A stretch of DNA of 59,919 nt. It comes from a virus. The stretch's first letter is position 1, and every line of letters begins with the position of its first letter. Below the pieces are notes generated by a model. The model worked only from the letters and a program-made list of their open reading frames with translations, ran no database searches and was not told the DNA's origin. Positions 7,137-37,814 of this stretch are shown in pieces. The position numbers and the translations under genes are program-made. The DNA lies in the UHGV virus genome UHGV-0342645; one strand, 5' to 3'.

Positions 7137-7529
7137 TTACTCCGCTAATGTGTAAGGAATACCGGATGCTTTAATCTGTCTGTACATGTCCATAGTACCA
7201 GCTCCGCCCGGAAACACAATAGCGTGATCTGGTTTGGGATCAGTATCCAGCATTAATTGATTGCGGTAAGCGCCAGCTTGTGCATTATAAGCACCTCTGG
7301 CGTTATACCGTATCTTAGTATTCGGTAAGGAAAGATTGTCCCACGGCGCAGGAAACGCCTCCGTCTTAATACCGTTCCGCTCCGCCCAATGTGCGCAAAT
7401 GCGGTCAACACCGTCAGCGTCACCGTGGCGAAGTGTGGTTATCCTTCTTTGCATATGCAGCTTATCCAATTGAGCATAGATATACTCCACATTCTTAAAA
7501 TTACGACCTCCGGTAACAACTAATAGCAT
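7137..7529 (-). CDS. SLOG-superfamily DUF2493-like protein
   Basis: MLLVVTGGRNF...HGDADGVD...IVFPGGAGT. Rossmann-like GG / GDxxGxD / PGG pattern typical of DUF2493 (YspA-related SLOG). Confidence 0.55.
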   Translation of the reverse strand: MLLVVTGGRNFKNVEYIYAQLDKLHMQRRITTLRHGDADGVDRICAHWAERNGIKTEAFPAPWDNLSLPNTKIRYNARGAYNAQAGAYRNQLMLDTDPKPDHAIVFPGGAGTMDMYRQIKASGIPYTLAE

Positions 7530-27779: not shown

Positions 27780-27827
27780 TAACCCCGTTGGTAACAAACG
27801 AACCCATAACAATTCGGAGTGAAGAGA

Positions 27828-28628
27828 ATGAGCAACATTGAAGACAAAAAAGCTGCCGCCGCAGCCGCCGCTGCCGCTGCAAAATCTGCTAAACCTGCAA
27901 AGAAAGAAGCTACTGTGAATGATGCAGAAGCTAAGAAAGCCGCTGCCGCTGAAGCTGCACGCGTAGCAAAAGAGAAAAAAGAAGCAGAGAAAAAAGCTGC
28001 CGCTGAAAAGAAACAAGCTGAAATCCGCACTGAAGCGGAAAACAAATTTACCGCTCTTTCCCAGGCAGTTGAAACCGTGAAGTTTGCTTTATCTGGTATT
28101 ACCGATGAAAGCACTGTTGAACAGATTACGGAAGCAGAATCTAAGGGTTCTGAACAGCTGAAGCATTTAAAGAATGCTCTGAAAGAGCTGAAAGCAGTTG
28201 TTAAAAAATCCAAAGGTGAAGATCTGTCCGGTGCAGTGACTGCTGCTCAGAGCATGGTAGACGAACTGGATTCGTCTATTAAAGGCTTCAAAGACAAGAT
28301 CCGTGCTGCAAAACAGGCAGAAAAAGAAGCGGAAAAAGCACGCGCTAAAGAGCTCCGCGAGAAAGAAAAAGAAGCTAATCGTATGCCGGAACAGAACGGT
28401 GTTCGTCGTCCGCAACCGGAAACTTCCTGCGGTCGTGCCTGGGCTCTGATGGACCAGATTAGCGCTACGCTGGGTCAGCCTGCTCCGATCTCTTATGTTC
28501 TGAATCTGGCTGGTCGCCAGGGGCTGAACGAAGATACCGTTAAAACCCAGTATGCACGCTGGAAGAAATTTAATGGTGTAACTGGTCGCGTACCTGTACC
28601 AGTACCGGAAGCCCTGAACGGCTTGTAA
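27828..28628 (+). CDS. Ala/Lys/Glu-rich (histone-H1-like) protein with globular C-terminal domain
   Basis: ATG 27828 with GGAG SD. The N-terminal ~190 aa are AKE repeats (KKAAAAAAAAAAKSAKPAKKE...). The C-terminal ~70 aa are non-repetitive. Confidence 0.65.
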   Translation: MSNIEDKKAAAAAAAAAAKSAKPAKKEATVNDAEAKKAAAAEAARVAKEKKEAEKKAAAEKKQAEIRTEAENKFTALSQAVETVKFALSGITDESTVEQITEAESKGSEQLKHLKNALKELKAVVKKSKGEDLSGAVTAAQSMVDELDSSIKGFKDKIRAAKQAEKEAEKARAKELREKEKEANRMPEQNGVRRPQPETSCGRAWALMDQISATLGQPAPISYVLNLAGRQGLNEDTVKTQYARWKKFNGVTGRVPVPVPEALNGL

Positions 28629-28654
28629 TATCAAAACATATCACGTTATAATGA

Positions 28655-28682
28655 AGGCGCCCAATGAGGCGCTTTCTTTTTC
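28655..28682 (+). terminator. intrinsic terminator
   Basis: 7-bp GC-rich stem (AGGCGCC / GGCGCTT) with a 6-nt loop, followed by TTTCTTTTT. Confidence 0.65.
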
Positions 28683-28697
28683 ACTAGAGGATTTAAG

Positions 28698-29405
28698 ATG
28701 AATATTAATCAACAAGCTCCCGAGTCTCGTTCTAAAGAAAACGATATGTATTTAGACGTGCATTCGGTATTCTCTACCATTCAGGGTGAAGGTCCGTTCT
28801 GCGGCCAGCCTGCTGTATTTGTGCGCCTTGCTGGATGTAACCTGCAATGCCCAGGCTGCGACACGGATTATACTGTTGGTCGTTCTCTTTACCACATTGT
28901 TGATATCATGCGTTTAATCGAAAGCCGTAAGCTGGAATCAGGCAATAGCACCTCACTTGTGGTTATTACTGGGGGTGAACCGTTCCGTCAGCAAATTAAC
29001 CCGCTTATTGAACAACTGTTATCGCGGGGCTATTTGGTGCAAATCGAAACTAATGGGTCTATGCCTTTACCTAAGAACTTTTCCCAGTTGCCTGTGATTG
29101 TATGTAGCCCCAAGACCTCAAAGATTCATCCTTCTGTGCTTTACCGCGCTAATGCATTTAAATATGTACTTAAAGCGTGCTGTGTAAACGTGGAAGATGG
29201 TTTACCCCTTCAAGCATTAGATCATCAAGCTACGCCATTTATCGCTAGACCTCCGAAGGGGTTCAAGGGTAAGATATATTTACAGCCAATGGACGAGCAG
29301 GATGAAGACCTTAACCACAGTAACATCCAAGCGGTTGTCCAAAGCTGTATGAAACACGGATACACGTTGCAGCTTCAGGTTCACAAATATATCGGGGTGG
29401 AATAA
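28698..29405 (+). CDS. queE: 7-carboxy-7-deazaguanine synthase (radical SAM)
   Basis: TIQGEGPFCGQPAVFVRLAGCNLQCPGCDTDYT is the QueE CxxxCxxC cluster context. 235 aa. Confidence 0.85.
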   Translation: MNINQQAPESRSKENDMYLDVHSVFSTIQGEGPFCGQPAVFVRLAGCNLQCPGCDTDYTVGRSLYHIVDIMRLIESRKLESGNSTSLVVITGGEPFRQQINPLIEQLLSRGYLVQIETNGSMPLPKNFSQLPVIVCSPKTSKIHPSVLYRANAFKYVLKACCVNVEDGLPLQALDHQATPFIARPPKGFKGKIYLQPMDEQDEDLNHSNIQAVVQSCMKHGYTLQLQVHKYIGVE

Positions 29406-29659
29406 TGCGTGTGTTAAGTCGGGTTGTGCATACTAAAGATGTTAATTTTTATGGTGTCACTTTAACCGTTCCAAGTCGAGTTGATTATCTGGCAGCTGAC
29501 AAGGATGGAAAGGTTTGTGGGTATGAAGTAGCTCCTCCAGAACTCAGTCATCGATTTGATAGATGGCTGCCAGCAGATCCGGGAGCTTACGAGTACGATG
29601 AAATAGCTTATGTAGACCTTGAAGGCTTAGACTGGACTCAAACATTAAGGGAGGTTTAA
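29405..29659 (+). CDS. hypothetical protein, third member of the paralogue family
   Basis: TAATG overlap with queE. VDYLAADKDGKV...VDLEGLDWTQTLREV matches 8050..8352 and 8683..8934. Confidence 0.65.
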   Translation: MRVLSRVVHTKDVNFYGVTLTVPSRVDYLAADKDGKVCGYEVAPPELSHRFDRWLPADPGAYEYDEIAYVDLEGLDWTQTLREV

Positions 29660-29872
29660 ATGATCACTTTAGAAGAAGCGAAACAGCATCAGGAAATGAT
29701 CACTGAGATTGTAGAAAAACTTAATTCTGCAATTGCTCACGCTACTATGCAGGGTGTACATGTTGAATTAGATATTAACCACGTTAGCACAATCGGAGCA
29801 CGCAATCATCCGATTGTGCTGTCAAATGTAACAATTAATCCTTGTGATATTAAAGGTGTAGAAGATGAATGA
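29660..29872 (+). CDS. hypothetical protein (tandem paralogue A)
   Basis: 70 aa. EKLNSAIAHATMQGVHVELDI aligns with DELNDAICRAASKNIHSELEI of the next ORF. Confidence 0.6.
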   Translation: MITLEEAKQHQEMITEIVEKLNSAIAHATMQGVHVELDINHVSTIGARNHPIVLSNVTINPCDIKGVEDE

Positions 29873-30053
29873 AGAAACTGTAATTCTTATGCAGAAAATT
29901 CAACGTTTACAGGACGAGTTGAATGACGCTATTTGCCGCGCTGCATCCAAGAACATACATTCGGAGCTTGAAATACACCAGCGTAAGGTAACATCTGAAG
30001 CGGTGGTGGAACAAGTAGTCATTAACCTCAATATTAGTCTTAAAGGTTTCTAA
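29865..30053 (+). CDS. hypothetical protein (tandem paralogue B)
   Basis: 62 aa with an 8-nt overlap with the upstream ORF. Ends 1 nt before queC. Confidence 0.6.
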   Translation: MNEETVILMQKIQRLQDELNDAICRAASKNIHSELEIHQRKVTSEAVVEQVVINLNISLKGF

Positions 30054-30054
30054 A

Positions 30055-30762
30055 ATGAATAAATTAGATAAACTGGTATTCCCTGTAAAAAATCATAACT
30101 CCGCCGTTGTAGTCCTGTCTGGCGGCCAGGACAGTGTGACCTGTTTAGGTCTTGCACTTAATAACTATGATAAGGTTTACGCTATTGGTTTTGCATACGG
30201 TCAACGTCATAACATTGAGCTGGCTTGTGCTAATCAAATTTGTAAAGAGCACGATGTCCCATTTGTTGTCTTTGAATTACCTGCTTTGAAACAGATTGGG
30301 AATAGCGCTTTAATCGGGGATGAAGGTGATGTTAACGAACATCACGAACAGCACAACAACCTTCCGGCAAGCTTTGTGCCAAACCGTAATGCTCTTTTCC
30401 TCACTACCGCGCACGCTTACGCACAGAAAGTTGGCGCTCGATATGTGGTTACGGGCGTTTGTGAAACAGACTATAGCGGTTATCCGGATTGCCGCCAGCA
30501 GTTTGTAAACTTGCTTGAAGCTACATTAAACGTTGGATATGAAACTGATATCCATTTTGTTACACCGCTTATGCGTTTAAATAAAGCGGAAACGTTTGAA
30601 CTGGCGGATAAGGTTGGTTTCTTAACCACAGTAATTGAACAGTCCCATACTTGCTATAACGGTGTCCGTCGCACTCTGCATGACTGGGGCTATGGTTGCG
30701 GTGAATGCCCTGCGTGCAAACTGCGTGCTAAAGGGTACAGCGAATTTATTAGCAAAGCTTAA
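30055..30762 (+). CDS. queC: 7-cyano-7-deazaguanine (preQ0) synthase, stand-alone form
   Basis: PP-loop VVLSGGQDS, C-terminal Zn-site cysteines (CYNG...CGECPAC). 235 aa with no fused amidotransferase domain. Confidence 0.85.
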   Translation: MNKLDKLVFPVKNHNSAVVVLSGGQDSVTCLGLALNNYDKVYAIGFAYGQRHNIELACANQICKEHDVPFVVFELPALKQIGNSALIGDEGDVNEHHEQHNNLPASFVPNRNALFLTTAHAYAQKVGARYVVTGVCETDYSGYPDCRQQFVNLLEATLNVGYETDIHFVTPLMRLNKAETFELADKVGFLTTVIEQSHTCYNGVRRTLHDWGYGCGECPACKLRAKGYSEFISKA

Positions 30763-30882
30763 TCTTACCGCGAAAACCGCACCGCTAGCGCATTGTTTAG
30801 GGTGCGGGAACCCAACTATACTACTAAAGCTTTTAAACCCAACAACCAGCGAATACCGCTGTTAAAACTGGAGAACAAAAGT

Positions 30883-31362
30883 ATGAAATTTATCGTCGCT
30901 TATTTGGCTGCAATTACATTCGTAAATCTGGGCTTTTCCTACCTCCCAATGCTTAACACGCCTCTTGGCGTAGTCCCCATGATGGCTTTCTTTGTAGGTA
31001 TTATCTTTGTGTTGCGTGACTACGCACAGCGTAACGCTGGCAAAGGCGTTATCCCTGCAATGATTGTGGGTTGCATCCTTAGCTGGGTATTTGGGGACCC
31101 TGCTGTTGTAGTTGCATCCGTTGCATCCTTTGCTCTTAGCGAGTTTGCGGACTATGCGGTATACACGATTACTAAGAAGCCGTTTCATCAACGTGTATTT
31201 ATCAGCTCTTTGGTAGCTGTACCAATTGACTCCATTGTGTTCTTAAGTATTATAGGTATTGTTAATCCGGGATCAATGGTAGCAATGAGCTTAAGTAAGT
31301 TCACAGCATCTGCCATCCTTTGGGTTGTTTACGAAGTTCATTCACGTACAGCGAGAGCGTAA
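30883..31362 (+). CDS. yhhQ: YhhQ/DUF165-like queuosine-precursor transporter (short form)
   Basis: ATG 30883 with GGAG SD. Polytopic membrane protein. VLRDYAQR, SEFADYAVY and PIDSIVF align with conserved YhhQ segments. Confidence 0.6.
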   Translation: MKFIVAYLAAITFVNLGFSYLPMLNTPLGVVPMMAFFVGIIFVLRDYAQRNAGKGVIPAMIVGCILSWVFGDPAVVVASVASFALSEFADYAVYTITKKPFHQRVFISSLVAVPIDSIVFLSIIGIVNPGSMVAMSLSKFTASAILWVVYEVHSRTARA

Positions 31363-31363
31363 A

Positions 31364-31954
31364 ATGAAAGATAATTTGAATAAAATTTGGCATCAACACG
31401 ACGGTAAAGGAATGCCTATTTTTCTTCGTAATGAGAAGTTTGAAGTTCGTTTGCGCAACGGCACACACGTTAAGAATCTATTACATGGATGGGATTGGGC
31501 TATGGAAGGGCGTTCAGCTATGGATGAGAATAGCCCTTATAAAGTTCAAGATATTATAGCCTGGCGATATATTGTTGCGGATGATTACGTCAAACAAGCC
31601 GGCGAAAACACTCGCTCCGGAGTGTGCCATCAATCTTCTTCTGGAATAAGCATAAGTAATACATTTAATGGTGCAGTTTTTACGAAATATGAACCATCTA
31701 AAATTCCCATGAATAAATATCAGAAAATTATTTATGGTAAAGATCAAAACGGCAATGTTGTAAAATGCATCGTGGACGTGTATGATGTCTTGGAAGCTTG
31801 GAAAACGACTAACCCAGCTTTACAACATTTGATTAAAAAGGCGTTGCAGCCTGGCGAACGCGGTCATAAAAGTCTGGTAGAAGACTTGAAAGATATTATT
31901 GCATCTGCACAGCGTGCGTTAGAAATTGAACAGTCTAAAGAGGTGTTAAAATGA
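31364..31954 (+). CDS. hypothetical protein with DUF3310-like C-terminus
   Basis: ATG 31364, 1 nt after the yhhQ-like stop. C-terminal VDVYDVLEAW...ALQHLIKKALQPGERGHKSLVEDLKDIIASAQRALE resembles DUF3310. Confidence 0.55.
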   Translation: MKDNLNKIWHQHDGKGMPIFLRNEKFEVRLRNGTHVKNLLHGWDWAMEGRSAMDENSPYKVQDIIAWRYIVADDYVKQAGENTRSGVCHQSSSGISISNTFNGAVFTKYEPSKIPMNKYQKIIYGKDQNGNVVKCIVDVYDVLEAWKTTNPALQHLIKKALQPGERGHKSLVEDLKDIIASAQRALEIEQSKEVLK

Positions 31955-32484
31955 GCTATACAGTAATTCGTTCACATGAAATTTGTGCTGGACATCGTGT
32001 TGTAGGACATGAAAGCAAGTGTCGTCATCTTCACGGTCACAACTATAAGTTTCACTTTAAGGTTGCACCGAAGCGCGTAGAAAGCGAAAACTACATCCCG
32101 GGCGCGAAAGGTTTCTCCGTTGAAGGTAAACTGGACGATGTCGGGCGCGTTATTGATTTTAGTGTGGTTAAGACTACGCTCTGTCAGTGGCTGGAAGACA
32201 ACTGGGATCACAAGTTCCTGCACTGGGAAAATGATCCTCTCATTAAAGGCCTCGATGCTCTTTTACGTCACGACGCTGCTATAGGGTATGACGTGGTAGA
32301 GCAAGAGGACGGATCCCATTTCTTTGACTCACTGGTAGCGCTACCGTTCAACCCAACTGCGGAGAACTTAGCTGCATATATGGTTAACGTAATTGGACCG
32401 CAACTACTTGACGGACATGGTGTTCAACTTGTAGAATGCACCATCGAAGAAACTTCGAAATGCCACGTAAATTATAGCCTGTAA
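31951..32484 (+). CDS. queD: 6-carboxy-5,6,7,8-tetrahydropterin synthase
   Basis: EICAGHRV...CRHLHGHNY (Cys/His zinc and catalytic motifs of QueD/PTPS). ATGA overlap with the upstream ORF. Confidence 0.85.
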   Translation: MSYTVIRSHEICAGHRVVGHESKCRHLHGHNYKFHFKVAPKRVESENYIPGAKGFSVEGKLDDVGRVIDFSVVKTTLCQWLEDNWDHKFLHWENDPLIKGLDALLRHDAAIGYDVVEQEDGSHFFDSLVALPFNPTAENLAAYMVNVIGPQLLDGHGVQLVECTIEETSKCHVNYSL

Positions 32485-32519
32485 TATGACCACATTAACA
32501 AACAAGGAAACTGCAAACC

Positions 32520-33101
32520 ATGCGTAAAGATACTGTAAAAATTGCTATTAGTTCATTACTTTTAAATATTGAAGGTTCAACAGAACTCCGTCCTGGGTTG
32601 GAAGAGACTCCTGAACGTGTCGCTAAAGCATACCAGACGTGGTTCGGCGGTTACGATGTAGATATCGCTGGATTGTTTAAAACCTTTGAGGATGGGGCTG
32701 AAAACACCAATGAAATGGTCATTGCCCGTGATATTCCTGTATACAGTCATTGTGAGCATCACATGGCTCCTATTATCGGTCATGCTGTTGTGGGTTATGT
32801 TCCCAATGGGAAGATCGTTGGGCTCAGTAAACTGTCTCGCGTAGTTGATGCTTTTAGCCGTCGCTTGCAAGTCCAAGAGCGTCTAACTAACCAGATTGCA
32901 GACGCTATCCAGGAGCATTTAAACCCGAAAGCTGTATGCGTTTATATTGACGCCAAACATATGTGCATGGAGTCGCGCGGTGTTAAGCAGGTATGCGGCA
33001 GCTCTACCATTACCAAAGCGTTCCGGGGCGCTACAGAACTGGAGCATGGTAGCGATATTGGTAAAGAATGGCGCCGGGAGTTCCTTGAAGCTTGTAAATA
33101 A
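32520..33101 (+). CDS. folE: GTP cyclohydrolase I
   Basis: YSHCEHHMAPIIG and QVQERLT motifs. 193 aa. Confidence 0.9.
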   Translation: MRKDTVKIAISSLLLNIEGSTELRPGLEETPERVAKAYQTWFGGYDVDIAGLFKTFEDGAENTNEMVIARDIPVYSHCEHHMAPIIGHAVVGYVPNGKIVGLSKLSRVVDAFSRRLQVQERLTNQIADAIQEHLNPKAVCVYIDAKHMCMESRGVKQVCGSSTITKAFRGATELEHGSDIGKEWRREFLEACK

Positions 33102-33119
33102 TAGATAGCTTTACAGATC

Positions 33120-33156
33120 AAGCCCATATCGGTCATAATACTGGTATGGGCTTTTT
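33120..33156 (+). terminator. intrinsic terminator after folE
   Basis: AAGCCCATA, 16-nt loop, TATGGGCTT, followed by TTTT. Confidence 0.55.
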
Positions 33157-33171
33157 AGTTGGTATAAGACA

Positions 33172-33729
33172 ATGGAAATTATCACAAGAGCTGAAGCAAA
33201 AGAAAGAGGTTTGAAATATTATTTTACTGGTAAGCCTTGTGCGAAAGGTCATCTTTCTGAAAGAAAGACTGTAGATGGCTATTGCATTACTTGTGACAGA
33301 GAAGCACGAAAGAAAAGAATGCGTATTTACAATAAAACAGAAGCTGCAAGGAATGCTATTAAGAGATATCATAAGTCACAGAAAGGAAAAGAAGCCCTTC
33401 AACGTTCAAAAGCTGCTTATAATTCTACTGAGAAAGGTAAAGAACAAAATAAAGAAAGGCTGAAACGCTGGGCTAAGACAGATTACGGTAAAGCTAGATC
33501 AAGATTACATTCCCTTGAAGTGCATAAGAAAAGGTCTTTAAGAATCCCTGCGTGGTCTGAAAAAGAACAAATTGAATTGTTCTACGCTAACTGCCCGGAT
33601 GGGATGGAGGTTGATCATATTATACCTCTTTGCGGTAAAAGAGTTAGTGGACTTCACGTCCTTAGTAACCTACAATACTTATCTATTGAAGAAAACAGAT
33701 CTAAGCGTAATAAATTTGAGGTGGAATAA
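33172..33729 (+). CDS. HNH homing-type endonuclease
   Basis: C-terminal EVDHIIPL...GLHVLSNLQYLSIEENRSKRN (H-N-H). N-terminal YYFTGKPCAKGH...CITC zinc-ribbon-like repeat. Confidence 0.8.
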   Translation: MEIITRAEAKERGLKYYFTGKPCAKGHLSERKTVDGYCITCDREARKKRMRIYNKTEAARNAIKRYHKSQKGKEALQRSKAAYNSTEKGKEQNKERLKRWAKTDYGKARSRLHSLEVHKKRSLRIPAWSEKEQIELFYANCPDGMEVDHIIPLCGKRVSGLHVLSNLQYLSIEENRSKRNKFEVE

Positions 33730-34649
33730 TGCATCTGTTTGTTGCTGCGGTATATACCAACGGCTATAAAGCTGGTCAACAACGATATGAAAAGTTAAAC
33801 GATCGGGAAAAGGACATCGTTAATAGCCTACCAAATATTTTGGAATCATACCACTACGTTGGACGTCAGAAGTATGTTGATCAAATGCGTGCGGACGGGG
33901 CTAAAGTGTTTCTCGACTCCGGAGCATTCTCCGCGCACTCGTTAGGTGCTCACATTGATATTGTCGAATATTGCGAATACATCAAACGCAATAAAGATAT
34001 CCTGCGCGTAGAAGATGGTGCTGTAATGGCGTCAGTGCTTGATGGTATCGGTGATCCACTGCAAACCTACCGTAACCAGCTTGAAATGGAAGCACGCGGT
34101 GCTAAACCGTTACCTTGCTTTCACTTTGGGGAGGACTTCCGCTATCTCGAATATTACATGAAGAACTACGAATATATCACCATCGGGGGCATGGTAGGGC
34201 GTTCCACGGACACGCTTAAAACTTGGCTTGACCGCATGTGGGATAAATATATTTGCGATGGTAGCGGTCGCCCTAAGATTAAGCTTCATGCATTTGGTAT
34301 TACGTCCACTACCATTATGGAACGTTACCCGTGGTATAGCTGTGACTCATCCTCCTGGATTCAAGCGGCAGCGTTTGGAAGTGTGGTTACTCCTCCGTGG
34401 GGCCCGATGCGCGTATCTGACAAGTCACCGGACCGACACCATTTCGGTAAGCACGTTTCAACGCTAACTGAAATTGAACAAGACGCTGTCCTTAAATACC
34501 TTGAGCAAAACGGTTTCACTTACGAACGTTTATCAACAATCTATGAATCACGTGCTGCCTTCAACTTATGGGCGTATGGTGTAATTGCTGCAAACATTAA
34601 CGCTACCCATGACGGCACATTCCGTGATCGTGTAATGGAGTTGTTCTGA
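33729..34649 (+). CDS. dpdA: DpdA-like DNA 7-deazaguanine transglycosylase (TGT superfamily)
   Basis: 306 aa. MHLFVAAVYTNG..., ILESYHY and FLDSGAFS (catalytic Asp context) resemble phage DpdA. Genetically linked to the preQ0 pathway. Confidence 0.7.
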   Translation: MHLFVAAVYTNGYKAGQQRYEKLNDREKDIVNSLPNILESYHYVGRQKYVDQMRADGAKVFLDSGAFSAHSLGAHIDIVEYCEYIKRNKDILRVEDGAVMASVLDGIGDPLQTYRNQLEMEARGAKPLPCFHFGEDFRYLEYYMKNYEYITIGGMVGRSTDTLKTWLDRMWDKYICDGSGRPKIKLHAFGITSTTIMERYPWYSCDSSSWIQAAAFGSVVTPPWGPMRVSDKSPDRHHFGKHVSTLTEIEQDAVLKYLEQNGFTYERLSTIYESRAAFNLWAYGVIAANINATHDGTFRDRVMELF

Positions 34650-34876
34650 TGGCTAACTTAAGAAGACCAAAAGGTAAACGTAAATATACTCACACAGGCG
34701 TAAGAATTAATTACTACGGTGAAAACAGAGTAGTATTCCTCCACAAGACACCTAAGCAGTGGCAGGATCCGTCAGGCACATGGTTTAATGCACAAGGGAA
34801 ACAAATGGGACTTTATGGATACCCTCCAACCTGTGAATTAGATTTAACCACAATTAGAGCAATCGAGGATCGCTAA
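34649..34876 (+). CDS. hypothetical protein
   Basis: 75 aa, basic N-terminus. Start and stop overlap the neighbouring genes. Confidence 0.55.
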   Translation: MANLRRPKGKRKYTHTGVRINYYGENRVVFLHKTPKQWQDPSGTWFNAQGKQMGLYGYPPTCELDLTTIRAIEDR

Positions 34877-35829
34877 TGTTAGACGCTCTTAAATTTGTTC
34901 AAGGCTCCGTTGCTAAAAAGGAACTGGTAGAAGGGCTTACCAGTTTTCTTATTCGTGACGGCCAAGTACAGGGCTTTAACGGTGTTATCGCACTGGGTAG
35001 CCCTATTGAGTTGGATATTGATTGCAAGCCCGAAGCTGGACCTATGATCAAAGCTATTTCAAACTGTGATGAAACAGTGCAGTTAACAATGATGGCTAAC
35101 GGTAAGCTGAATATCAAGTCAGGTCCGTTTCGTGTTGCTATACGCTGCATTGATAAAGAAACGCCGCACGTATTCCCTGAAGGCGATTTGTACGAAATAG
35201 ACGGTGCTCGCTTTGTTCATGGTGTGAAGTCCGTTGCTCCATTTGTAGGCTCCGATGCTTCCCGTCCGTGGGCTTGCGGTATCCTGATTAATAACGGTAG
35301 CCTGTTTGCTACAAATAACGTCACTATTGCGGAATACTGGTTTGGTAATCAATTCCCTATCGATTGCATAATACCTTCCGTTGCAATTAAAGAAATACTG
35401 CGTATTAAAGCTAACCCGACGCATATTCAGGTCAGTAAAAATAACGTAACGTTTCATTATTCGGAAGGTCGCTGGTTGCGCACACAGCTTATTGATGCAG
35501 AGTGGCCCGATATACGTCGTATTTTAAATGTTCAATGCAATGCACATCCTGTTGATCCAGGTCTTTTTGAAGGCTTGCATAAAATTAAACCGTTCGCAGA
35601 AGACCGACCGCGTGTATATATTGAAAACGGTCTAGCCCGTACTCACTATGATGATGCGGAAGGTGCAAGCTTTGTATTACAGGACCGCACAATAACGGGA
35701 GTGTACAATATTGACATCCTGCTATTGCTTGAAAATGTGGTTAAGACTGCGGACTTTAGTTTATATCCGCAACCTTGCGCATTCTTTGGGGAAAATCTTC
35801 GCGGTGTATTAATTGGAGAACGTGTCTAA
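34876..35829 (+). CDS. sliding-clamp (DnaN beta)-like protein
   Basis: 317 aa. LKFVQGSVAKKELVEGLTSFLIRDG...KLNIKSGPFRVAIRCIDKETPHVFP parallels the beta-clamp N-domain pattern. TAATG-coupled to the polymerase gene. Confidence 0.5.
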   Translation: MLDALKFVQGSVAKKELVEGLTSFLIRDGQVQGFNGVIALGSPIELDIDCKPEAGPMIKAISNCDETVQLTMMANGKLNIKSGPFRVAIRCIDKETPHVFPEGDLYEIDGARFVHGVKSVAPFVGSDASRPWACGILINNGSLFATNNVTIAEYWFGNQFPIDCIIPSVAIKEILRIKANPTHIQVSKNNVTFHYSEGRWLRTQLIDAEWPDIRRILNVQCNAHPVDPGLFEGLHKIKPFAEDRPRVYIENGLARTHYDDAEGASFVLQDRTITGVYNIDILLLLENVVKTADFSLYPQPCAFFGENLRGVLIGERV

Positions 35830-37814
35830 TGCGGACAGATGCTATTGGTTTCTTTTGGCAGGACTTACCGCCTGAGCCAAAAGCAAAGAAAGAAAAAGTT
35901 AAACGTTTACCGCCGGAGCGCACTTGGGAGCGCCCGGATTATTTGCCCAATCTTGAGGAAGCGCGGAACTTCCAATACAACCTGTATACGCAGGACGAAC
36001 TTATTCAAGCATGGATTAACCGCGAACCGCTTGTATACGATATTGAATGTTATCCAAATTATTTCTTAATCGCGTTTCGCGGAGTACGGACTAAGAAAGT
36101 CGTCTACTTCGAAATGTATCACGGTTGTAGTTTGAATTGCTTGTTACTTAACTGGGTAATGACAAACTTCCTTATCGTAAGCTTTAACGGTAACGGGTAC
36201 GATATGCCCATTGCTACGCTTGCGCTTAACGGCTGCTCTAATGCTCAGCTTAAAGATGCAACCGATAAAATAATCGTGGAAGACTGGCGACCTTCCGATG
36301 TGTTGAAGAGTTACCGGCTTAAGCGTATGCAGAATGTTAACCACATTGATATTATGGAAGTTCTGCCTGGGTCCGGTGGTTTGAAACAATATGGCGGACG
36401 TGTACATACTCGCCGTATGCAGGATTTACCATTTAAGCCAAATACAATGTTGACGCAGGACCAGATGTTGATTGTACGCTGGTACTGTATTAACGACCTT
36501 GTACAGACAGAAGAATGTTTTATCGCATTACAAGAACCTTTGCACCTTCGTGAAATTATGTCGCAAGAATACGGTGTGGATCTGCGTTCACGTTCCGATG
36601 CACAGATCGCAGAAGACGTAATTAAGCACGAAATCCAAGCGTTAACTGGTGTGCGTCCGCAGCGCCCCCAAGTTTATCCTGGAACAAAGTATGCATACAA
36701 CATACCGGACTTCATTCGTTTTCAAACACCTCTAATGAATAGTGTTTTGGATATTGTTCGGGACTGTCGTTTTATTGTTAGCGATAACGGTGGTGTTAGC
36801 CTACCCCCAGCGTTAACAGGGCTTGAGATTAAGATCGCGGACGGTGTCTACCGTATGGGTATTGGCGGTTTGCACAGCTCTGAAGAATGTGCTGGTCACG
36901 GTAAAGAGCCAGGTATTAAGAAGCGGGACATTGACGTAACGTCCTATTACCCTTCTATTATTCTTAATCAGGGCTTGTATCCTGAGCAGTTGGGGCCAGC
37001 GTTTCTTCGTGTTTATAAAAGCATTGTAGACCGACGTATTGCAGCTAAGCACTCAGGGGACAAGAACACAGCCAATACGCTGAAGATCGTAATCAACGGA
37101 TCGTTCGGTAAATTGGGCTCAATGTGGTCCGTACTGTACGCTCCGCAATTATTGATACAAGTTACATTAACTGGACAGTTATCACTGTTGATGCTTATTG
37201 AAGCGTTTGAACTGAACGGCGTTAAAGTAATTTCAGCTAACACGGATGGTATTGTGGTTAAGTACCCTGACCACATGCAGGACTTCGTTGATAACATGAT
37301 CAAGTGGTGGGAGTCCGTGACAGGCTTTGAAATGGAATCCAACTACTATGACAAGCTGTACAGTGCTAACGTCAATAACTATGTTGCAGTAAAAGAACCT
37401 GATGAGGAAGGAAATGTTGAAATCAAACGTAAAGGCTGGTTCGCAAAAACAGGGCTTCAAAAGAACTGTACTGGTGAAATTATTATGGAAGCTGTATGTG
37501 AATGTTTGGCCCACGGTACGCCTGTTTCTCGTACTATACGCAATTGCAACGATATTAGAAAATTCATTATCCTACGTGCGGTGAAAGGCGGCGCAGTATG
37601 GAATGGCGAATTTTTGGGTAAGGTTGTACGCTGGTACTTAAGCACTAATGAAGAAACACCTGAAATAATCTATGCTAACTCGGGCAACCGTGTAGCTGGT
37701 AGTGCTGGAGGCGTACCGATCATGACGTTACCGGATAAAGTGCCGGACGATATAGATTATGACGCTTACATAGCTAAGGCTGAAAAGTATCTCGAAGACA
37801 TGGGATACGCCTAA
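35829..37814 (+). CDS. family B DNA polymerase with 3'-5' exonuclease domain
   Basis: ATG 35829. Exo motifs YDIECYPNYF, FNGNGYDMPI and YCINDL. Pol motif A DVTSYYPSI, motif B KIVINGSFGKLG, motif C SANTDGIVV. Confidence 0.85.
   Translation: MRTDAIGFFWQDLPPEPKAKKEKVKRLPPERTWERPDYLPNLEEARNFQYNLYTQDELIQAWINREPLVYDIECYPNYFLIAFRGVRTKKVVYFEMYHGCSLNCLLLNWVMTNFLIVSFNGNGYDMPIATLALNGCSNAQLKDATDKIIVEDWRPSDVLKSYRLKRMQNVNHIDIMEVLPGSGGLKQYGGRVHTRRMQDLPFKPNTMLTQDQMLIVRWYCINDLVQTEECFIALQEPLHLREIMSQEYGVDLRSRSDAQIAEDVIKHEIQALTGVRPQRPQVYPGTKYAYNIPDFIRFQTPLMNSVLDIVRDCRFIVSDNGGVSLPPALTGLEIKIADGVYRMGIGGLHSSEECAGHGKEPGIKKRDIDVTSYYPSIILNQGLYPEQLGPAFLRVYKSIVDRRIAAKHSGDKNTANTLKIVINGSFGKLGSMWSVLYAPQLLIQVTLTGQLSLLMLIEAFELNGVKVISANTDGIVVKYPDHMQDFVDNMIKWWESVTGFEMESNYYDKLYSANVNNYVAVKEPDEEGNVEIKRKGWFAKTGLQKNCTGEIIMEAVCECLAHGTPVSRTIRNCNDIRKFIILRAVKGGAVWNGEFLGKVVRWYLSTNEETPEIIYANSGNRVAGSAGGVPIMTLPDKVPDDIDYDAYIAKAEKYLEDMGYA

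Follow-up and report, generated by a model that had tools for sequence, protein, structure and literature searches.

The 59,919-nucleotide stretch analysed here, UHGV virus genome UHGV-0342645 (hereafter the window), represents a near-complete Seuratvirus (Queuovirinae)-type siphovirus genome of ~60 kb, with terminase, portal, tail, lysis, and replication modules found in scans of its open reading frames (ORFs). Positions 28698-34649 on the + strand hold an island comprising queE, queC, a short yhhQ-like gene, queD, folE, and dpdA, all six being intact, full-length ORFs, and this island very probably serves a Seuratvirus-type coliphage as its module for 7-deazaguanine modification of DNA, working as in phage CAjan. 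A preliminary description of this DNA had reported six recognisable genes on one strand; all six were recovered intact on the + strand, the island ends exactly at the coordinates given there, and the motifs it had listed (CNLQCPGCDT, SGGQDS, HGHNY, CEHHMAP, and FLDSGAFS) are all present. Relative to the Seuratvirus genomes Seurat, CAjan, WildeMaa, ECP2304, KS_A3, and slur01, the island displays 90-94% nucleotide identity across 81-92% of its length, with the first 25 kb of the window showing 92-95% nucleotide identity to the same group. The exact sequences of DpdA, QueD, and an HNH-like protein encoded just before dpdA are also present on a public assembly contig (ENA/Logan).

All four enzymes of the pathway to preQ0 (7-cyano-7-deazaguanine), namely FolE, QueD, QueE, and QueC, carry their catalytic signatures. 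FolE, a GTP cyclohydrolase I of 193 aa (32520..33101, + strand), contains CEHHMAP, with CEHH at residues 78-81, and matches its Pfam family at E 1.8e-62 and NCBIfam NF006825 with 205.6 bits, over the cutoff of 174. Its identities to the proteins of CAjan, ECP2304, and 9g are 86.7%, 84%, and 82%, respectively. An ungapped comparison of the 3' end of folE with that of ECP2304 was set aside as invalid, the two genes being of unequal length. QueD, a 6-carboxytetrahydropterin synthase of 177 aa (31951..32484, + strand), exhibits the motif CRHLHGHNY and an above-cutoff match to Pfam PTPS (7.1e-22), with identities of 78.0% to CAjan, 87% to ECP2304, and 77% to 9g. The radical-SAM (S-adenosylmethionine) enzyme QueE, a 7-carboxy-7-deazaguanine (CDG) synthase of 235 aa (28698..29405, + strand), holds CNLQCPGC (CX3CX2C) at residues 47-54, matches the NCBIfam QueE models with E values from 4e-28 to 4e-21 and PHROG 2076 ('QueE-like') at 1.6e-68, and is 99.1% identical to CAjan QueE and 63% to that of 9g. 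QueC, a stand-alone preQ0 synthase of 235 aa (30055..30762, + strand), combines an SGGQDS PP-loop at residues 22-27 with a C-terminal four-cysteine cluster (C-x14-C-x2-C-x2-C), matching Pfam QueC at 9e-75 and TIGR00364 with 242 bits, over the cutoff of 150, and sharing 96.6% identity with CAjan QueC. The FolE, QueD, and QueE proteins of 9g complement the matching E. coli mutants ΔfolE, ΔqueD, and ΔqueE (PMC6884629).

The yhhQ-like gene is the least secure of the six gene calls. Its ORF opens at 30793, with the likely start at the ATG at 30883, matching the annotation in relatives, and the resulting product is a putative preQ0 transporter of 159 aa, probably from the VUT/COG1738 family of membrane proteins (30883..31362, + strand), with about 4-5 hydrophobic segments; E. 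coli YhhQ has 221 aa. Scores for Pfam Vut_1 (PF02592; 25.5 bits, E 1.9e-5, cutoff 27.2) and TIGR00697 (21.7 bits, E 1.4e-4, cutoff 50.95) are sub-threshold, and BLASTP against E. coli YhhQ gave no significant match (E 1.3). The homologues of the protein nevertheless bear the PF02592 domain and merge gradually with cellular proteins of ~190 aa named 'queuosine precursor transporter', while hhalign of its family profile against E. coli YhhQ gave an E value of 1.1e-4 over 103 columns, with a probability of 57%. The permease proposed earlier finds backing in homologues and hhalign, but not in curated models or BLASTP; judged by its sequence, the most fitting description of the protein is that of a short and divergent, probable member of the VUT/YhhQ family. 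It is 98.7% identical to CAjan YhhQ, whose deletion (ΔyhhQ) leaves modification like that of the wild type (PMC7544227).

The gene dpdA (33729..34649, + strand) encodes a protein of 306 aa with FLDSGAFS at residues 61-68, predicted by orthology to be a DNA-guanine transglycosylase exchanging G for preQ0. The protein is 95.4% identical to DpdA of CAjan, 68% to that of 9g, and 99.7% to those of ECP2304, KS_A3, SHIN8, and KS_S4, and in E. coli the 9g enzyme places preQ0 in plasmid DNA (PMC6884629). A match to PHROG 887 (1.2e-94) places the protein merely in a phage family labelled as tRNA-guanine transglycosylase (TGT).

Several observations weigh against reading the island as a working CAjan-type module. 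DpdA has no Pfam match, TGT included, even at E <= 5, and reaches 17 bits (E 0.002) against NCBIfam NF041059 (DpdA), whose cutoff is 200; its first AlphaFold model, based on 32 close homologues, was poor, with a predicted local distance difference test (pLDDT) score of 67. QueE scores under the equivalog cutoffs of all NCBIfam QueE models, and the YhhQ-like protein likewise stays below its curated family cutoffs. CAjan DpdA has other residues at 13 of the first 36 positions. The Pfam scan for enzymes that could tailor preQ0 covered 59 of the window's ORFs of at least 100 aa, with ORFs under 100 aa scanned only inside the island, and the chemistry attributed to this genome would rest on orthology to CAjan.

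The failure of the curated models concerns their composition: Pfam TGT and NF041059 were built from tRNA TGTs and from bacterial DpdA, and they do not reach as far as the divergent phage clade. A phmmer search of DpdA against Protein Data Bank (PDB) sequences gave no match, and a shallow 32-sequence profile gave OMP decarboxylase as its sole match, which was judged a chance result. The model from 32 homologues was dropped, with Foldseek returning no significant match for it (TGT 5egr at rank 4, E 0.17). An exhaustive phmmer search retrieved 5,670 DpdA relatives, of which 72 representatives (30-66% identical) were aligned for a second model, and this model reached a pLDDT of 96.5 and a predicted template modelling (pTM) score of 0.91. 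The top 50 Foldseek matches of the second model are all tRNA-guanine transglycosylases, with a probability of 1.00. The best structural match is the DNA-acting DpdA 7ui4, not a tRNA TGT; the predicted fold is a TGT-type (beta/alpha)8 barrel. The 72-sequence profile ranks 7ui4 first of 177,635 PDB sequences, with an E value of only 0.056 and an alignment spanning GGMV and SxDS(T/S).

The active site of DpdA is fully retained. The nine active-site residues proposed for CAjan DpdA (PMC7544227) are all identical here (D63, S64, F67, D105, H132, G153, G154, F189, and D206); they are invariant in one DpdA alignment (A1) and, F67 excepted, invariant or at least 90% conserved among the 72 diverse homologues. 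Active-site residues of the protein also match Asp95, Asp130, His181, and Asp256 of Salmonella DpdA, to which roles have been assigned and in which D95A and D256A abolish activity (PMC10164549). In DpdA of phage HK243, the substitution G217E abolishes 2'-deoxy-preQ0 (dPreQ0) (bioRxiv 10.1101/2025.10.29.685425), and G217 is invariant in the alignment of DpdA homologues. The preliminary description had held that the assignment would fall if profile searches did not place 33729..34649 in the TGT/DpdA superfamily. Such a test would misfire, because standard profile hidden Markov models (HMMs) miss phage DpdA at curated thresholds; the curated Pfam and NCBIfam models do fail, while fold comparison and orthology uphold the superfamily. 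The placement stands, with the predicted structure, PHROGs, and orthology as its basis, not curated HMMs.

Two features of the wider DpdA family were also observed. Some homologues of 596-637 aa carry an intein-like insert of ~310-330 aa (P0125 and P0129, also P0143, P0150, and P0189), starting with Cys and ending with Asn followed by 'SVDSSSW', which puts the insert two residues ahead of the catalytic Asp, D206 of the window protein. In Rosebush-like actinophages of Mycobacterium and Rhodococcus, dpdA adjoins a ParB-like gene, recalling DpdB; no such gene occurs in the window.

The gene content points to dPreQ0 as the final base. In the 59 scanned ORFs, Pfam detected no QueF/QueF-L, ArcS, GATase, DUF3109 (DpdM), or formyltransferase (DpdN), and neither a ParB-like DpdB nor a DpdC-like match was found; the sole QueF-like signal is sub-threshold and falls within FolE, a protein of the same T-fold. 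Only one PTPS protein of this fold is present, and it carries the QueD signature CxxxHGH (CRHLHGH), not the LxxxHRHxF that distinguishes the decarboxylase DpdL from QueD (PMC10516641), and QueC is present. Of the 471-aa Gat-QueC of 9g, residues 241-457 alone align to the window QueC, at 29% identity, whereas no part of the window matches its amidotransferase half (residues 1-240; best E 0.25). These results agree with the earlier statements that QueC is stand-alone (235 aa, with no fused amidotransferase) and that no QueF- or ArcS-like gene accompanies it. The absence of a Gat domain, QueF, ArcS, DpdB, and any DpdL/M/N-type family from the ORFs scanned supports the dPreQ0 prediction. The expectation of dPreQ0 rather than 2'-deoxyarchaeosine (dG+) or dPreQ1 is also supported by the match in gene set and order to CAjan, a phage of the same genus shown experimentally to carry dPreQ0 only.

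Seuratvirus coliphages such as CAjan replace roughly one quarter to one third of the guanines of their DNA with preQ0, and the CAjan modification has been quantified twice. Liquid chromatography-tandem mass spectrometry of its DNA detected 70,628 dPreQ0 per 10^6 nt; dG+, dPreQ1, and dADG were absent, and ΔdpdA had no dPreQ0 left (PMC6884629). A later measurement gave 44 dPreQ0 per 10^3 nt and a level 12-fold lower in ΔqueC; most of the modification disappeared in ΔfolE as in ΔqueC, and deletion of folE, queC, or dpdA abolished the nanopore signal (PMC7544227). The modified G's in CAjan lie in GA and GGC motifs. In the window, GA and GGC sites account for 28.5% of the G's, or 63,377 per 10^6 nt, inside the range of the CAjan measurements.

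By orthology to CAjan, the chemistry, target motifs, and protective role of the island can be outlined as follows. FolE would convert GTP to dihydroneopterin triphosphate, from which QueD would form 6-carboxytetrahydropterin and the radical-SAM enzyme QueE 7-carboxy-7-deazaguanine, with the stand-alone QueC converting the latter to preQ0. DpdA, a predicted TGT-fold TIM barrel, would act after replication, flipping selected guanines out of double-stranded phage DNA and displacing them by way of a covalent intermediate between Asp206 and the DNA, Asp63 being the likely general acid/base, and would install preQ0 to give 2'-deoxy-preQ0 in DNA. If the specificity is that of CAjan (GA and GGC), ~28% of the G's would be modified, and the modification would be expected to confer partial protection against type I and type II restriction. 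Salvage of preQ0 from outside may fall to the YhhQ-like membrane protein, which would be dispensable.

In a rival reading, the final base would be other than dPreQ0, an unrecognised tailoring enzyme among the five island ORFs without assigned function leading to dADG, dG+, dPreQ1, or a new derivative. One of these ORFs (29405-29659) is absent from CAjan, and tailoring enzymes of unexpected fold (DpdL, DpdM, and DpdN) were found only recently (PMC10516641). Yet CAjan has homologues at four of the five ORF positions and dPreQ0 only, no second T-fold protein was detected in the ORFs scanned, just as no Gat, QueF, ArcS, DUF3109, or formyltransferase was, the ORFs not common to CAjan are an 84-aa protein and the HNH endonuclease, and ORF 31364-31954 has a C-terminal module that many phages lacking such clusters also carry. 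We consider a further tailoring step improbable.

Even less credence is given to a role in tRNA metabolism, in which the cluster would boost the queuosine/preQ0 supply of the host and the TGT-like protein would act on tRNA. The pathway enzymes are all common to queuosine biosynthesis, some phages encode preQ0 genes without DpdA (PMC6884629), and 'queuine tRNA-ribosyltransferase' is the annotation in many GenBank records; the 68% identical dpdA of 9g, however, fails to complement E. coli Δtgt yet puts preQ0 into plasmid DNA, and CAjan ΔdpdA, lacking a 95.4% identical protein, loses all DNA modification (PMC6884629). The best structural match, moreover, is the DNA-acting 7ui4, and the protein has neither CxCxxC nor the C-terminal tRNA-binding domains of arcTGT (306 vs 577 aa). 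A decaying remnant, intact-looking but inactive, for instance through disablement of the enzyme by an HNH-associated replacement of the DpdA N-terminus, has next to no likelihood. The DpdA sequence differs from CAjan at 13 of its first 36 residues, the first 120 nt of the gene are only 62-68% identical, and the genome is an assembly sequence without a phenotype, but the ORFs are full-length throughout, the catalytic residues are all retained, and the same DpdA variant (at least 97.7% identical) occurs in independently isolated, propagating phages including ECP2304, KS_A3, SHIN8, and STP-SP5. The variant N-terminal residues are modelled within the barrel at a pLDDT of 96-98.

Between folE and dpdA lies an ORF of 185 aa (33172..33729, + strand) encoding an HNH-type, endonuclease VII-like protein, with a D-H...N...N motif at residues 148-180, a match to PHROG 1035 'endonuclease VII' at 5.2e-16, and an E value of only 0.22 against Pfam HNH. 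At 97% identity or above it occurs in 5 Seuratvirus records only, and in ECP2304, KS_A3, SHIN8, and KS_S4 it occupies the same position at 98.4-99.5% identity, whereas the slot in CAjan and WildeMaa holds unrelated ORFs of 68 and 77 aa. Copies with 44-46% identity directly adjoin dpdA in some Nonagvirus and Pseudomonas phages, one of them annotated 'homing endonuclease'. The interval between dpdA and a hairpin after folE, which forms its left border, is a variable slot. The hairpin (33120..33153, + strand), detected by consensus scan and alignment, comprises a 14-pair stem followed by a T-run and is identical in four Seuratviruses in the alignment with ECP2304, WildeMaa, and CAjan.

The variation in this slot extends into dpdA itself. 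Thirteen of the 14 substitutions between the window DpdA and that of CAjan fall within the first 36 residues, and the 62-68% identity of the first 120 nt to the HNH-minus phages CAjan and WildeMaa contrasts with 91-98% in the remainder of the gene. The HNH-like ORF and the first ~120 nt of dpdA constitute a single mosaic cassette (window 33155-33850). The pattern is as expected of a homing endonuclease gene carrying a flanking, presumably cleavage-immune target region, and the HNH-like ORF is, judging from its sequence, a probable free-standing homing endonuclease outside the modification pathway. That it is an active enzyme targeting the first ~120 nt of dpdA and spreading among co-infecting Queuovirinae together with a cleavage-immune DpdA N-terminus is a tentative proposal that we regard as somewhat doubtful, and it would require cutting of dPreQ0-modified (GA/GGC) DNA. 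A change of DpdA motif specificity through the exchanged N-terminus (13 of 36 residues) is less likely. The N-terminal variation leaves the active site untouched; identical motif specificity to CAjan is nonetheless an assumption, because the DpdA N-terminus differs. The HNH cassette with the linked replacement of the dpdA 5' end is the sole local peculiarity of the island and probably a small example of how homing endonucleases create mosaicism within an operon for DNA modification.

The preliminary description had counted five embedded ORFs without a role; all five are present, but 33172-33729 is the HNH-type endonuclease just described. The other four, all on the + strand, encode proteins of 84 aa (29405..29659), 70 aa (29660..29872), 62 aa (29865..30053), and 196 aa (31364..31954). 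The 84-aa protein belongs to PHROG 1972 (unknown function), with no Pfam or NCBIfam match, and is 91.7% identical in WildeMaa and 46% in ECP2304. No significant family match was obtained for the 70-aa protein, 94-97% identical in CAjan, WildeMaa, and ECP2304, or for the 62-aa protein, 84-89% identical in relatives. Small conserved ORFs of the CAjan cluster are also without an assigned role (PMC7544227).

The 196-aa protein matches PHROG 23361 (unknown function) at 4.5e-101, with no Pfam, NCBIfam, or PDB match, and shares 55% identity with its CAjan counterpart and 66% with that of ECP2304. Its C-terminal module of ~70-80 aa (31712-31942) occurs in 672 phage records, mainly 42-46 kb Salmonella/Escherichia siphoviruses, most of them not from 7-deazaguanine-type phages, and also matches gp07 of 9g (49% identity), located between queE and gat-queC. 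This ORF was considered as a cluster-specific accessory factor and rejected; a specific modification role is unsupported because many phages devoid of deazaguanine genes carry the module as well.

At the other end of the island, just upstream of queE, a consensus scan revealed a terminator-like, G+C-rich hairpin with a T-run (28653..28676, + strand), consisting of a 9-pair stem with 6 G-C pairs followed by TTTTTCAC, which by its sequence probably represents the left boundary of the island. Across the whole window, an Rfam scan found neither a preQ1-type riboswitch nor any other RNA, and a sigma-70 promoter scan was uninformative, with 18 sites observed against 16.6 expected. Mosaicism within the genus is evident across the island, with QueE, QueC, and the YhhQ-like protein 97-100% identical among CAjan, WildeMaa, and ECP2304, and QueD at 73-87%, FolE at 84-90%, and the protein of ORF 31364-31954 at 55-96% identity, the nearest relative changing from gene to gene.

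Directly upstream of the island, the ORF at 27819-28628 encodes an Ala/Lys/Glu-rich protein of 269 aa with a run of ten alanines and no family match, whose CAjan homologue is annotated 'FtrA domain'. The ORF after the island (34876-35829) shows a weak DNA_pol3_beta_2 match (E 8.9e-5), and its annotation in relatives is DNA polymerase processivity factor. Next comes a DNA polymerase gene (35775-37814) with no Pfam match. Elsewhere in the window, near lysis and packaging genes, a 130-aa ORF on the - strand (7137-7529) carries a YspA/cpYpsA-related SLOG domain (Pfam YAcAr 3.1e-18).

Among known systems, the cluster of CAjan (gp35-gp45, NC_028776) is the reference for the island, comprising twelve genes with six assigned, namely folE, queD, queE, queC, yhhQ, and dpdA (PMC7544227). 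The two share backbone, gene order, strand, and the six assigned genes, with proteins 78-99% identical, a DpdA of equal length with identical active-site residues, and an identical hairpin after folE. In CAjan, by contrast, the 68-aa gp36 stands between folE and dpdA in place of the 185-aa HNH-like ORF, a further small ORF (gp39) lies upstream of queD, and ORF 29405-29659 is missing. The closest deposited islands are those of ECP2304, KS_A3, SHIN8, and KS_S4, with 92.8-93.8% nucleotide identity over 87-92% and the same HNH-like ORF, ECP2304 differing by an extra 270-nt ORF before queD; no modification chemistry was found for these four phages in the literature searched.

Phage 9g (Nonagvirus) belongs to the same subfamily, Queuovirinae, and follows the same pathway logic, with identities of 82% for FolE, 77% for QueD, 63% for QueE, and 68% for DpdA. 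It differs in its Gat-QueC (471 aa), leading to dG+, and its cluster has no yhhQ-like gene. The difference between QueC and Gat-QueC looks like gene replacement, not simple domain loss or gain, because the window QueC shares 29% identity with 9g, compared with 63-82% for FolE, QueD, QueE, and DpdA.

More distant is the Dpd restriction-modification (R-M) system of Salmonella Montevideo, whose DpdA (7ui4) is 17% identical, with a chain of 413-436 aa against 306 aa in the phage protein. The bacterial DpdA requires the ParB-like ATPase DpdB, with DpdC then making dADG (PMC10164549), whereas 9g DpdA works in E. coli without DpdB (PMC6884629); the phage system acts in the manner of DpdA without being a Dpd R-M system. 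Identity to tRNA TGTs (bacterial TGT, archaeal arcTGT, and QTRT1) is 10-16%, the phage protein having neither CxCxxC nor the C-terminal tRNA-binding domains of arcTGT.

The system is already known and characterised in the same genus, and GenBank has near-identical genes under names such as DpdA and QueC. The finding is confirmatory and contributes a further genome to the well-characterised anti-restriction system by which Queuovirinae are defined. Dag-type glycosylases target 7-deazaguanine-modified DNA (bioRxiv 10.1101/2025.10.29.685425), making the modification a double-edged signature. For automated scans, the lesson is that Pfam and NCBIfam miss phage DpdA entirely, so that fold comparison or PHROGs are required.

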